Notes: generated by a model not told the origin, from the letters alone. A DNA stretch of 7,108 nt from a virus (IMGVR_UViG_2778261165_000002:1-7108), one strand, 5' to 3'. Shown: positions 2,276 through 5,363, numbered from the stretch's first letter. A program made the numbers and translations.

Positions 2276-2405
2276 TTCTTAAAACCTCCTCAAACGCATT
2301 CTGACGCATTTTTCATTCTCGCTGCATTGGCATGCCTTGCACGCGTTTACCTCGCTACAGAGCGATTGTGATGCCTTAAAAGCGATTTATTGAAGTGATA
2401 TTTGC

Positions 2406-2738
2406 TTAATCGAAATTCTTTTCTTTGATTCCTGCGACCCTGATGGCTTTCATTACTGCAATTACCGTTTTGTCACGCCCATCCTCATAACCCATCGCAT
2501 AAGCACCTTCTTCACCATCTTTCCAAAAGTCGTCATTCGATTCGGGCCAGTCGATATCCAGTTCAATAGCTGCTCGCGATGCCTGCCATAAAGTCCACCA
2601 CTCATTTAAGGAGTGACGAATATCCATGCTTGAAAATGCGAAGTACCTATCACCATTTCTTGCCTCGGTTATCATCTCGAATGGTAATTTCAATTTTTTG
2701 GCAACGTATTCCTCAAACTGCTTTCTTGATTCGTCCAT
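2406..2738 (-). CDS. Hypothetical protein, 110 aa, acidic and Trp-rich
   Basis: ORF with ATG start and GAGGGT upstream, 17 nt after the preceding stop. No family recognised. Confidence 0.6.
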   Translation of the reverse strand: MDESRKQFEEYVAKKLKLPFEMITEARNGDRYFAFSSMDIRHSLNEWWTLWQASRAAIELDIDWPESNDDFWKDGEEGAYAMGYEDGRDKTVIAVMKAIRVAGIKEKNFD

Positions 2739-2755
2739 CGATACTTACCCTCAGT

Positions 2756-2962
2756 TCAACTCACAAAACGCCACGCCATTTTTGCTACAGCGACAGGCGC
2801 AACACCGATAATCACCCACAGGAGAATGCTACCGAAAATCACACCCACCAGGTCTTTACCTTCGCCTACCAACCGGACAAAACTGCTGGCAACCACAATG
2901 AACGTCGCCACCATCCACATAGCACCGAGAATCCTCAATGCAGAGAAAATTAACTCAGCCAC
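2756..2962 (-). CDS. Small membrane protein, 68 aa, two predicted transmembrane helices, GTG start
   Basis: Hydrophobic stretches ILGAMWMVATFIVVASSFV and LVGVIFGSILLWVIIGVAPVAV. GTG start preceded by GGGGAGAG, overlapping the stop of the upstream 27-aa ORF. Confidence 0.45.
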   Translation of the reverse strand: MAELIFSALRILGAMWMVATFIVVASSFVRLVGEGKDLVGVIFGSILLWVIIGVAPVAVAKMAWRFVS

Positions 2963-3038
2963 GATTTACTCTCCCCAAAATAAAAAGGCCTGCGATTACC
3001 AGCAGACCTGTTACAAGCTCAGTGATGTAGATGGTCAT
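2955..3038 (-). CDS. Candidate 27-aa hydrophobic peptide (MTIYITELVTGLLVIAGLFILGRVNRG)
   Basis: Its ATG overlaps the helicase stop as TGATG, with AGGAGG 6 nt upstream inside the helicase 3' end. One predicted transmembrane helix. Below the ORF-track size cutoff, so found by hand translation. Confidence 0.3.
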   Translation of the reverse strand: MTIYITELVTGLLVIAGLFILGRVNRG

Positions 3039-4474
3039 CAGAATCCTCCTTTCTTCTTGGACTGCGGTTCCTCGCGTTCACGGCGGCGCATTTCAGCAGA
3101 CTGTTGGTCTGTGTCATAAATAGCGCCATTTGCCTGAATGCAATACACCGTGCCGGTATTGCCATGACGATTGAGACGAAGGATTAGTTCGGTTTCACCA
3201 GGTGGAACACTGTCATCAAAAGCACCTTCACGATGGATCCCCACCCAATAATCGCAATCCTGTTCAATCTGCCCTGTATCGCGCGAGTCACTTGGTAATG
3301 GGCGTTTATTGGTTCGGCTTTCCAGTGCGCGGTTAAGCTGTGTCAGAAGCACAACAACGCAATCAAGCTCTTTGGCAAGGTTCTTCAGTCCTTTGGTGAT
3401 CATGCCGTAAGCAAGGTCGTTGCGATCGGCCTTTTCAGCGGTCATTAGTGTCAGGTAATCGACCAGAATCATGCCAACACATCCTTTTTCTCGCTTGATT
3501 CGACGGCTTTCGCTGACGATTTGAGCCAGAGATAATCCCGGCGTGTCGTCGATGTAAAGCAGGTCGATTTCACTCAAGCGATTGGCTGTTTCGATCGCCC
3601 TGTTGAAGTCACCATCGTAATCACCCTGATAGCCGTCATCAGCGTCATTTGTCGCCGGAATGTAAAAAATATTCGGGTTAACACCTGACTTCTGTCCTAC
3701 CAGCTTTTCCAGTATCTGGTCGCCTGGCATTTCAAGACTGAACATCAGAGCGGGCTTTTTCTCATGCACTGCGCAGTTGATTGCCATCTGGCTGTATAGC
3801 GTCGTTTTCCCCATCTTAGGGCGAGCGCCAATGACGAACAGAGAGCCTTTCACCAGACCTTTCGGTGACAGCATCCTGTCCAGAGATGGGATCCCTGTGC
3901 TCATTCCTCGTTGTTCGCCTGACGGGTCAAATCGCTTCTCAAGGTCGCTAACCCAGTCTTCCATGACCTCACCAAATGAGCGAAGGCCGCGACGCGATCC
4001 GGTTTTTGCATGGTCTGTCAGTTGCGTGAAAATCGCCTGAATAGCTTCGTACTTCTGCGTCGCAGTCATTCCGTTGCGGGAATAGAGCAATTCCGTCGCT
4101 TCAGTCATGCGGTTGATGGCGTAGCGTTCCATTGCGGTTTCACGAACCTGCATTGCATAGGCAACGATGTTTGCTGCGCTTGGCGTGTTCTTTGCGATCT
4201 CAGCGATATAAGCAAAACCGCCAACAGACGCCGTTAACGATTTGCGCTCCAGTTCATCGAAAAGCGTCAGCCCATCTACTGGCTTTTGCTCCCGGTGCAT
4301 TCTGGTTATTTCTTCGAAAAGGATTTTGTGTGGTCGGCTGTAAAATGAATCAGGCTTCAGCATCGCCAGAACTTTCCGGACGCGCTCACTGCTGTCATCA
4401 TCCAGAAGCAATCCACCAATCACCGCCTGCTCTGCCTCGATGCTATGGGGCGGCGCATAAAAATTATCGGTCAT
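3038..4474 (-). CDS. DnaB-family replicative DNA helicase, 478 aa
   Basis: DnaB-like N-terminal domain (IEAEQAVIGGLLLDD), Walker A GARPKMGKT, Walker B-like ILVDYLTLM. ORF 3038..4489 trimmed to the ATG at 4474 (GAGGG upstream); the ORF-track start at 4489 is a GTG. Confidence 0.9.
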   Translation of the reverse strand: MTDNFYAPPHSIEAEQAVIGGLLLDDDSSERVRKVLAMLKPDSFYSRPHKILFEEITRMHREQKPVDGLTLFDELERKSLTASVGGFAYIAEIAKNTPSAANIVAYAMQVRETAMERYAINRMTEATELLYSRNGMTATQKYEAIQAIFTQLTDHAKTGSRRGLRSFGEVMEDWVSDLEKRFDPSGEQRGMSTGIPSLDRMLSPKGLVKGSLFVIGARPKMGKTTLYSQMAINCAVHEKKPALMFSLEMPGDQILEKLVGQKSGVNPNIFYIPATNDADDGYQGDYDGDFNRAIETANRLSEIDLLYIDDTPGLSLAQIVSESRRIKREKGCVGMILVDYLTLMTAEKADRNDLAYGMITKGLKNLAKELDCVVVLLTQLNRALESRTNKRPLPSDSRDTGQIEQDCDYWVGIHREGAFDDSVPPGETELILRLNRHGNTGTVYCIQANGAIYDTDQQSAEMRRREREEPQSKKKGGF

Positions 4475-5363
4475 CGTGTTCACCCTCACGAACTTTCAGG
4501 TAGGTATTGTCGTTAAGCAGGAAATCAAATCCCTTTTTGTGCCAGACGGTTCCGCGTTGATGGTTTGGGCGTTCTTCGAACATCCATCGGCAATTTTCGC
4601 CTACGTAGATCAAATAATTTCTCCAGTCCTGCATCGTGAACCCATGCCCGTCAAGCTGGCGGGTTATCACTCCGGCTTTGCGCCAGAACGTTCGGATCTG
4701 GTTTTTACGCTTGTCATTCAGTGCGCGGATTTTTGGCGCTTCAGGAAGGATTTCGTGGTAAGCATCGACAACATCCTGACAGCTAACGGAAGTTTTTTTC
4801 TTGTCAGACTTTTTGTCTGCTGTGGCACTCTCTAATACGTCAGTATTAGAGATAATATTATTATATTCTTTATCTGTGGTAATTTGCTGGTAATCTGCTG
4901 GTACAGTATTGCTTACAGGCATTGGTATTGCTGGCTTTGAGGTGGTAATTTGCTGGTAATCTGCTGGTACAAAATTTGACTGATAATCGTCATATTTCTC
5001 TACCGAGAAAACTGAGAATTTACCGTGTGAAACCCAGTCAATCATGCCGAGTTTTTTGAACTTTCTAAGCAGGTACTGAACGCGATCTGGTTTGAGTCCT
5101 GTTTCAAACGCCAGAGAGTTTCTACCGCCAAGTAGCTTCCCTCTGCCTACCAGAATTTCTCCTGCGTCAGTCATTACATACTCAGGCGTATGCTTTGCTT
5201 TGAGGATTAAGTGAACCCACAGATGCGCTGCTTCTGCGTCCTTGTAAAACGGCACATCCATAATTTTACGGTGCAGCAAGGCATACCCCTTACCGCTGCT
5301 TTGATGCGGTTGTTGTAGCCTTCTGGCCTCTCTGGCTTCGGCTAGATTAGATATGTTACTCAT
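4464..5363 (-). CDS. Replication initiation protein (lambda O functional analogue, non-lambda sequence), 299 aa
   Basis: Sits between cII and the helicase. Strong RBS AAGGAG 7 nt before the ATG. Iteron-like direct repeats lie inside the coding sequence and encode a duplicated [10 protein letters not shown] peptide. Stop overlaps the helicase start by 11 nt. Confidence 0.7.
4876..4971. repeat. Putative replication origin iterons inside the initiator gene
   Basis: Two identical 30-bp direct repeats (4876..4905 and 4942..4971), each with two copies of TGCTGGTA spaced 11 bp apart, plus a degenerate copy near 4929. An AT-rich tract (about 4840..4875) adjoins on the downstream side relative to the initiator gene. 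Confidence 0.6.

Follow-up and report, generated by a model that had tools for sequence, protein, structure and literature searches.

The stretch of DNA analysed here (the window, 7,108 nucleotides of the viral sequence IMGVR_UViG_2778261165_000002) matches, at 100% identity, a prophage carried by two E. coli isolates from chicken. In that identical prophage PGAP annotates, in this order, cI, cro, cII, a replication protein, a helicase, a 68-codon gene and a 110-codon gene, followed by Lar, NinB, a Dam-type methylase, NinE, NinF and onward, which is the gene order of a lambdoid early-right operon. All genes around the region under study (positions 2756-3038) are on the minus strand. Upstream lies a DnaB-like replicative helicase, whose longest ORF (483 codons) spans 3038..4489 on the minus strand and ends in a TGA stop at 3040..3038; the start chosen by PGAP maps to 4474 and the longest ORF begins at 4489. 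The protein matches Pfam DnaB (5e-31) and DnaB_C (2.9e-60) as well as phrog_19, and carries the PGAP label DnaB-like helicase. The downstream neighbour (110 codons; 2406..2738, minus strand) matches phrog_343 at 1e-28 and shares 98% identity with a PGAP 'phiTE_015 family protein'; it lies outside the feature under study, yet recurs beside relatives of the 68-codon gene. No promoter-like site was found when both strands of 2300..3300 were scanned, the whole window gave zero Rfam matches at E<=1, and a terminator scan of 2300..3300 returned one site, on the minus strand and inside a 27-codon ORF.

Two small ORFs are linked to the helicase in the manner described in an earlier reading, made without database searches (the sequence-only reading). 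The first (27 codons, MTIYITELVTGLLVIAGLFILGRVNRG; 2955..3038, minus strand) has its ATG at 3038..3036 and shares one base (A) with the helicase TGA, so that the junction reads TGATG, and it is preceded by an AGGAGG Shine-Dalgarno sequence at 3045..3050 (minus strand), located in the last helicase codons, 6 nt before the ATG. Pairing of this AGGAGG to the 3' end of 16S rRNA is predicted at -11.6 kcal/mol, which corresponds to a background quantile of 0.001 (about 0.1% of 5000 random positions in related loci are as good). The TGA of the 27-codon ORF (2957..2955) lies in an 8-nt overlap, GTGGCTGA, with the second ORF, a 68-codon gene at 2756..2962 on the minus strand (GTG start at 2962..2960, stop at 2758..2756; WP_143366800.1 according to PGAP). 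An SD-like site for the GTG (GGGGAGAG; 2969..2976, minus strand) is placed directly after a T tract, and the same G-rich block is also located ahead of ninB (lambda, P22) and ahead of the ATG of a homolog of the 68-codon gene (type C, below).

Both products are hydrophobic, with maximum 19-residue Kyte-Doolittle means of 2.26 for the 27-mer and 2.57 for the 68-mer. Neither has a significant match in Pfam (E<=1), NCBIfam or PADLOC, the sole listed match of these searches being fumarate reductase subunit C (E=0.023; 15 bits against a cutoff of 234). The only significant PHROG matches are a full-length match of the 27-mer to phrog_5907 (E=2e-16) and a match of residues 1-68 of the 68-mer to profile positions 1-68 of 68 in phrog_1165 (E=8e-36). 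Both ORFs recur across hundreds of phage and prophage sequences, and both are evidently more than chance open frames. In BLAST comparisons with related loci the homology mostly begins exactly at the ATG of the 27-codon ORF (window position 3038; query position 82/83), and its far border either coincides exactly with the stop of the 68-codon gene (2756) or falls some ten codons inside the gene after it.

The 27-codon ORF, left unassigned in the sequence-only reading, is by homology ninA, the first ORF of the lambdoid nin region and an already named gene. A tblastn search with the 27-mer yielded matches in 388 of 50,697 phage records, lambda, P22 and 933W among them, with 85-96% identity over 23-27 residues. 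The P22-pbi record contains a matching 26-codon CDS labelled 'NinA protein' with a terminator feature inside it, and the 933W record has 'orf4; homologous to ninA gene', likewise with a rho-independent terminator inside; in the mEp235 record the terminator is annotated and ninA is not. In lambda the ninA sequence (reading MTIYITELITGLLVIAGLFIWGRGKS) occupies the 73 nt between ren and ninB and is unannotated, and PGAP annotates the 68-codon gene of the present locus but not the 27-codon ORF. ninA is counted among the non-essential nin genes of lambda and P22 (PMC8022706, PMC2629481), and NinA is also named in a study of exactly this ninA/tR2 element (Li et al., PMC4824070). The NinA peptide was not found in the entries listed for the small-ORF studies PMC11188072 and PMC5597208, with the Sakai cells assumed to be uninduced.

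In lambda, P22, L, epsilon34 and 933W, ninA likewise comes directly behind replication genes or ren, and its start codon overlaps the stop before it; in the window, as in P22, it is located directly behind the helicase. The lambdoid ninA genes share with the window the embedded hairpin and a stop that overlaps the start of the next gene (ATGA at the ninA-ninB junction of lambda and P22). Over residues 1-23 the window's NinA is identical to that of P22 at 22 of 23 positions (W21L only) and to that of lambda at 21 of 23 (V9I, W21L), and among the copies examined only the window and the two E. coli chromosomes that match it at 100% (represented by L001) have W21L and a synonymous GGC-to-GGT change. 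The C-terminal end of the window's NinA, RVNRG, differs from the RGKS or RGKT of known NinA, and the 3' end of its gene is adapted to the GTG-started 68-codon gene instead of to ninB. Its AGGAGG (-11.6 kcal/mol) is much stronger than the GGAG of lambda (-5.9 kcal/mol).

The statement in the sequence-only reading that lambda has ren at this position holds in so far as ren is present there, and Ren is also the product of a small, non-essential gene starting on the stop of the preceding replication gene. However, lambda has ren and then the same ninA/tR2; in lambda, 933W and H-19B ren is found upstream of ninA/tR2 and not in its place, and it is absent from the window.

The terminator-like element within ninA extends over 2977..3009 on the minus strand, with a stem formed by 3009..3002 and 2993..2986, a loop at 3001..2994 and a T tract (TTTTTATTTT) at 2986..2977. 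The terminator scan gives the hairpin as AGGTCTGC-TGGTAATC-GCAGGCCT (3009..2986), followed by the tail TTTTATTTTG. The 8-bp stem has 5 G-C pairs and closes an 8-nt loop, with a folding energy of -13.0 kcal/mol (z = -3.9). When lambda was scanned the match was the homologous hairpin at the homologous place, and terminators are annotated at this place in the mEp235, P22 and 933W records. Judged by these similarities and by alignment of the two sequences, the element is the ortholog of lambda tR2, which has the same stem, loop and T tract in the orthologous position, about 30 nt from the upstream stop. Lambda tR2 folds at -15.7 kcal/mol, so that the window allele is 2.7 kcal/mol weaker; a private C-to-U change turns a G-C pair into a G.U pair, and the tail (UUUUUAUUUU) has one extra T. 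According to PMC4824070, tR2 of lambda lies 30 bp past the NinA AUG and 16 bp ahead of the NinA stop, and the natural spacer before tR2 listed in its Table S3 (...TATGGAGTTAAAAGATGACCATCTACATTACTGAGCTAATAACA) equals, in our comparison, the 5' end of ninA. In vivo, lambda tR2 reaches an efficiency of about 0.9 if some 30 bp separate it from the upstream stop, and a translated gene that ends only a few bp ahead of it represses it almost completely. The hairpin (3009..2986) and the T tract (2986..2977) inside the 27-codon ORF had been missed in the sequence-only reading.

Hardly any variation is seen in the stem, loop and T tract among the 200-odd copies collected from IMG/VR and GenBank, and this holds for synonymous codon positions too. 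Three hairpin alleles occur at the same spot, after the same 33-nt 5' segment and each followed by a T tract, two of them being GGGGCUAUU-UACAC-AGUAGCCCU (allele B) and GGGGCCACU-UACAC-AGUGGCCUU (allele C). The alleles were folded one by one because A and B pair in different registers; B and C gave -12.6 and -14.1 kcal/mol, and all hairpin alleles fall between -12.6 and -15.7 kcal/mol. B and C are distinguished by a single compensatory change (U-A to C-G) together with two changes that wobble pairing accommodates, and none is disruptive. A low-GC gene for an HNH_3/AP2 endonuclease interrupts ninA after codon 11 in several loci, L016, L044, L050 and L190 among them; the hairpin survives there, with a perfect stem, at the 3' end of the insert. 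From these comparisons the hairpin is evidently selected as an RNA structure and terminator.

The near-invariance of hairpin and T tract is also compatible with an incidental 27-codon ORF, that is, with tR2 and a spacer that are either untranslated or translated without consequence, the 'helix' being the stem and T tract read in frame. Much in the second half of ninA agrees with this reading. The C-terminal half of NinA is wholly different between the hairpin alleles (GLLVIAGLFIWGRG..., GAIYTVALFYWIKNEG..., GATYTVAFLFEDRD...), that is, the alternative alleles encode unrelated C-terminal peptides, and insertions of the HNH gene are tolerated, as are nonsense and frameshift variants; aberrant copies amount to about 6 of 208 and comprise a nonsense variant (L203), at least two frameshifts (L027, L146) and a few other forms. 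In addition, 17 stop-free codons would arise by chance with a probability of about 0.44, and the ORF goes unannotated in lambda GenBank-type records and by PGAP. Since the C-termini are allele-specific and the HNH insertion and the nonsense and frameshift variants occur, the sequence of NinA beyond residue 11 is under no strong constraint of its own. The T tract reads in frame as Leu-Phe-Ile-Leu/Trp, so part of the single membrane helix ascribed to NinA is a by-product of the terminator, and roughly the last two-thirds of its hydrophobic stretch are dictated by hairpin and T tract. The single-helix description of the 27-mer thus stands as regards hydrophobicity (2.26), but much of the sequence concerned is translated hairpin and T tract.

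In contrast, the start and the first codons of ninA behave as expected of a translated gene, and we consider it improbable that the ORF is incidental. Seven unrelated genes precede ninA (ren, two helicase types, a 633-codon ORF and three ORFs of 90-101 codons), and all seven end within -3 to +1 nt of the ninA ATG, five of them with a TGA inside ATGA. An SD-like site is present in each of these seven contexts, with duplex energies of -5.9 to -11.6 kcal/mol and background quantiles of 0.089, 0.071, 0.023, 0.022, 0.013, 0.003 and 0.001, and the homology between loci begins, as noted, exactly at the ATG. In a sample of 209 loci that was anchored on the hairpin, and is thus unbiased for the 5' part of ninA, 202 keep the 33-nt 5' segment (the N-terminal 11 codons) with no indel or stop, the other seven being the HNH inserts; GTG replaces ATG in one copy of this sample. 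Changes in codons 2-11 are synonymous in 10 cases and non-synonymous in 6, all of the latter conservative (I/V, I/M, T/A, T/S, T/N), a synonymous excess (P = 0.003-0.007) over the expected share of 0.27-0.30. At the other end, the ninA stop and the following start codon overlap in almost every context; the overlap is ATGA before ninB and either GTGGCTGA or ATGGTTAA before the 68-codon gene. In Klebsiella phage phiKp_30 the hairpin is degraded (-9.1 kcal/mol, z = -0.7), with mismatches in the stem and an interrupted T tract, yet a hydrophobic ORF of 27 codons is still intact.

The lambda experiments point in the same direction, in that mutation of the NinA ribosome-binding site or AUG restored the output of an upstream reporter in vivo and the authors judged the NinA initiation site 'not weak' (PMC4824070). 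In its passage on the NinA start, the same paper refers to Kroger and Hobom 1982 and to the lambda ribosome profiling of Liu et al. 2013. Several independent lines of evidence hence indicate selection on ninA as a translated ORF, at the least as regards initiation and its first 11 codons. A programmed frameshift from ninA into the 68-codon frame was also considered and rejected: it would need +1 or -2, and by reading no canonical slippery heptamer is present in CUUUUUAUUUUGGGG.

The 68-codon frame is a genuine gene, and its product belongs to a catalogued family of two-helix membrane proteins, PHROG 1165. The gene occurs in 107 phage records, and the protein has 194 close clusters in a set of 5.8 billion proteins, the latter from E. 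coli, E. albertii and Salmonella, and a scan of genome contigs with the 68-mer gave 3 loci. Full-length matches are found in HK75, HK629, mEpX1, mEp235, Stx2-86 (orf70), mEp213, HK633 and Salmonella P22-like phages, where the proteins, as in the window, have 68 codons and two predicted helices and are encoded between ninA and later nin genes. In the mEp235 record an internal ATG is taken as the start, so that the product has 52 residues; this start is disfavoured by the ATG-started type C and by the distant homologs. Three types can be distinguished, A (the window), B and C, which are 41-55% identical over the first 48 residues and nearly identical over the last 20. All are exactly 68 codons long, C starting with ATG and A and B with GTG, and 110 of 115 copies keep exactly this length. 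The window's protein, as type A, is 97-99% identical to its closest relatives, from which it differs in nothing essential. W16, T20, F21, K36, W49, G53, P56, K61 and W64 are invariant in PHROG 1165 proteins. The sequence-only reading would have been undermined by missing start signals or by frames broken in related prophages; start signals are present, and the frames are intact in 202 of 209 loci for the ninA N-terminus and in 110 of 115 copies for the 68 codons.

Purifying selection on the 68-codon gene is only moderate. Between types the pN/pS of the sense frame is 0.54-0.67 (overall 0.5-0.7), as compared with 0.80-0.88 in the codon-aligned antisense frame, and it approaches 1 within type A, where changes are few and dN/dS ranges from 0.1 to 1.3. 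An antisense ORF (2579..2953, plus strand), open in types A, B and C, was rejected as a real gene, its pN/pS lying above that of the sense frame in every comparison; its product is of low complexity and rich in His, Pro, Thr and Asn.

The two-helix description in the sequence-only reading is borne out by the AlphaFold2 model of the 68-mer, a helical hairpin with helices at residues 2-33 and 38-67 (mean pLDDT 91.4). In the alignment, charged residues are located near the N-terminus (K/R10), near the C-terminus (K61 and R65) and in an acidic loop with G-x-K-D. The protein is predicted to form a helical hairpin in the inner membrane with both ends, to judge from these charges, in the cytoplasm and a short acidic Gly-x-Lys-Asp loop outside. 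The structure-based search that the sequence-only reading had envisaged did not assign a function, as the model matched only generic helical hairpins in the viral and PDB libraries (E >= 0.95).

A profile search of 1.84 billion protein representatives found only 25 clusters. The distant members have 63-66 residues, share K10, W16, P56, K61 and W64, and sit in early regions of temperate phages, after replication genes. One of them directly overlaps the end of a DnaB helicase (L222), another follows Rep_O and DnaC-like genes (L220), others belong to gene chains of a similar kind, and a phiTE_015-family (PF26207) gene is next to or near the distant homologs in L220, L223 and L221. The ninA/tR2 element is absent beside all distant relatives examined. 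Since ninA occurs in 388 phage records and the 68-codon gene in 107, and since distant relatives of the latter are without ninA, the two are independent genes whose adjacency here is incidental.

Taken together, the most likely explanation, to which we assign a probability of about 0.78, is that the region is the start of the nin region in a lambdoid prophage, transcribed rightward from pR (along the window's minus strand), and that ninA/tR2 is a terminator within a translated relay ORF that hands ribosomes on to the 68-codon gene. By analogy with lambda, RNA polymerase lacking N modification would stop at the hairpin and U tract of the window's tR2, while N-modified polymerase would read through and continue into the nin genes. 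Ribosomes that end translation of the helicase at the UGA would restart at the overlapping AUG behind the strong AGGAGG, translate across the terminator and terminate on the GUG that opens the following gene. ninA would then serve mainly as a short translated bridge, by which the chain of genes linked through their starts and stops stays unbroken across the terminator, in line with the description of the nin region as a chain of ATGA-linked, interlinked genes (PMC8022706). The 5' half of ninA, about 30 nt, would hold the upstream stop far enough from the hairpin for termination to occur; it supplies this distance, and a ribosome finishing the helicase would therefore not mask the hairpin. Any effect of translation on tR2 should be small because translation from the NinA start cut termination by only about 10% in a plasmid system (PMC4824070). 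Expression of the 68-mer would require that the early-right transcript extend past tR2. As the scan showed no promoter-like site upstream, the protein should be made only during lytic growth and not in the lysogen. Our best guess as to its role is that it may bind and modulate another membrane protein during the early lytic phase.

It is unlikely, in our estimate, that NinA is instead a genuine membrane microprotein, for which about 50 nt would encode terminator and helix at once and which would act together with the following small membrane protein. Cooperation of NinA with the 68-residue hairpin is hinted at by natural NinA-hairpin fusions in Salmonella: two independent in-frame fusions of NinA to the type C protein occur there, in up to 47 contigs, and a three-helix fusion is accordingly tolerated.

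These fusions would also suit a functional membrane pair of NinA and the 68-mer directed against the host envelope or incoming phages, as entertained in the sequence-only reading, which considered an exclusion, toxin-like or membrane-targeting role. Both proteins are hydrophobic and tightly linked, and they form one mosaic unit with borders at 3038 and 2756. Exclusion is a frequent function of small membrane proteins in phages. On the other hand, ninA is found in far more phage records than the 68-codon gene (388 as against 107), elsewhere it is followed by ninB or other genes, and no ninA lies beside the distant 68-mer relatives. Searches of Pfam, NCBIfam, PADLOC and Rfam and the fold searches lent no support to such a role, and no promoter-like site for expression in the lysogen was found in 2300..3300. 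As for a type I toxin (Hok, TisB or Ibs-like), neither a promoter-like site in 2300..3300 nor an Rfam match at E<=1 was found, and no antisense RNA or Rfam family suggests one. With respect to a holin, the 68-codon gene lies in the early-right operon, in the helicase-ninB interval, and has no Pfam match. A membrane pair of this kind is thus quite doubtful.

Least likely is that ninA acts as the leader peptide of an attenuator, in which the spacing of ribosome and polymerase would decide on tR2 and tune nin and Q expression to translation of the replication genes: the terminator does lie wholly within a translated ORF coupled to the upstream gene, tR2 is, as mentioned, almost fully repressed by a gene ending a few bp upstream, and extending the upstream frame through tR2 brought termination to about 40% of that of the parental construct, but such an attenuator is unlikely because translation from the NinA AUG lowers tR2 efficiency by only about 10% (PMC4824070), and the 84 nt of ninA revealed neither regulatory codons nor an alternative antiterminator hairpin. 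Read-through in lambda is already explained by N antitermination, which also speaks against the attenuator.

Both ninA/tR2 and the 68-codon family are already known or catalogued, and the locus is ordinary for its phage group, given that ninA is a named gene, tR2 a classic terminator and the 68-codon protein a catalogued one. For annotation this means that a tiny 'membrane ORF' directly after lambdoid replication genes is to be regarded as ninA/tR2 and not as a new toxin or exclusion gene, and that hydrophobic mini-ORFs can be the translation of a terminator stem and T tract. The narrow family of two-helix proteins of 63-68 residues to which the 68-mer belongs recurs behind phage replication genes and near phiTE_015-family genes. 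The NinA peptide is also present in lambda. If NinA were indeed a membrane microprotein, an overlooked gene product would be added to the best-studied phage, and NinA would be a clear case of dual coding of an RNA terminator and a protein segment.

When the window was compared with dozens of related phages, the edges of mosaic homology were found exactly at the start codon of ninA (window 3038), the 27-codon ORF that begins on the helicase stop, and at the point where the 68-codon gene for the two-helix membrane protein stops (window 2756, its stop codon). The two genes are swapped as a single cassette, and its ends are gene-precise.

Several observations concern the surroundings of the cassette and its distribution. 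A phiTE_015-family gene (PF26207; 2406..2738, minus strand, in the window) adjoins the two-helix membrane gene or lies near it in the window and in the distant relatives L220, L221 and L223, and the two may form a conserved gene pair. The enterobacterial prophage module also occurs on two contigs (L085 and L086; 93% and 80% protein identity) whose labels assign them to metagenome-assembled genomes of Cellvibrionaceae and Bacillota; both contigs are probably mis-binned.

Within ninA, the terminator tR2 of the window carries a C-to-U change that produces a G.U pair, and its tail is one T longer, which goes with W21L in NinA (window 2986..3009 and 2977..2980). Among the copies examined, the combination of the G.U pair with the extra T was found only in the window and in two 100%-identical Escherichia coli chromosomes (represented by L001). 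Elsewhere the lambda-type stem is replaced by other terminator hairpins behind an unchanged 33-nt 5' segment of ninA, namely by allele B in five loci (L138, L143, L174, L185 and L207) and by allele C in L170, where the ninA frame has no stop and reads into the next gene as an 80-codon ORF. In Klebsiella phage phiKp_30 (L095, 901-984) a 27-codon ninA homolog persists despite a mismatch in the tR2 stem and an interrupted T tract, and it has no tightly linked gene downstream.

NinA and the type C form of the 68-residue protein are also found naturally joined in frame, as proteins of 93-94 residues from Salmonella prophages (P0121, P0123, P0125 and P0128). The region coding for these fusions is homologous to window 3038..2756, and one fusion is present on 47 contigs. 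At least two distinct peptide junctions were observed, which implies that small indels arose independently in the runs of T and G 3' of the hairpin.

As for the 68-codon gene itself, the GenBank record of phage mEp235 begins it at an internal ATG (L002, 2887-3045), which gives 52 residues and removes half of helix 1; the GTG start, with 68 residues, agrees better with the homologs. An antisense ORF of 124 codons (window 2579..2953, plus strand) spans the whole gene, and none of types A, B and C has a stop that closes this frame. Its substitution pattern and composition speak for a shadow ORF and against a gene.

In five loci (L016, 1757-2500; L044, L050, L105 and L190) ninA is interrupted past codon 11 by a gene of low GC content that encodes an endonuclease of 203 residues with HNH_3 and AP2 domains. 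The ninA frame cut short by this insertion reads on as a new hydrophobic 34-codon ORF (MTIYITELIAGLSLLMVLTVYIIKYILYANKKTN), and a tR2 hairpin with a perfect stem is retained directly 3' of the inserted gene, which looks like a free-standing homing endonuclease aimed at the conserved ninA/tR2 sequence.
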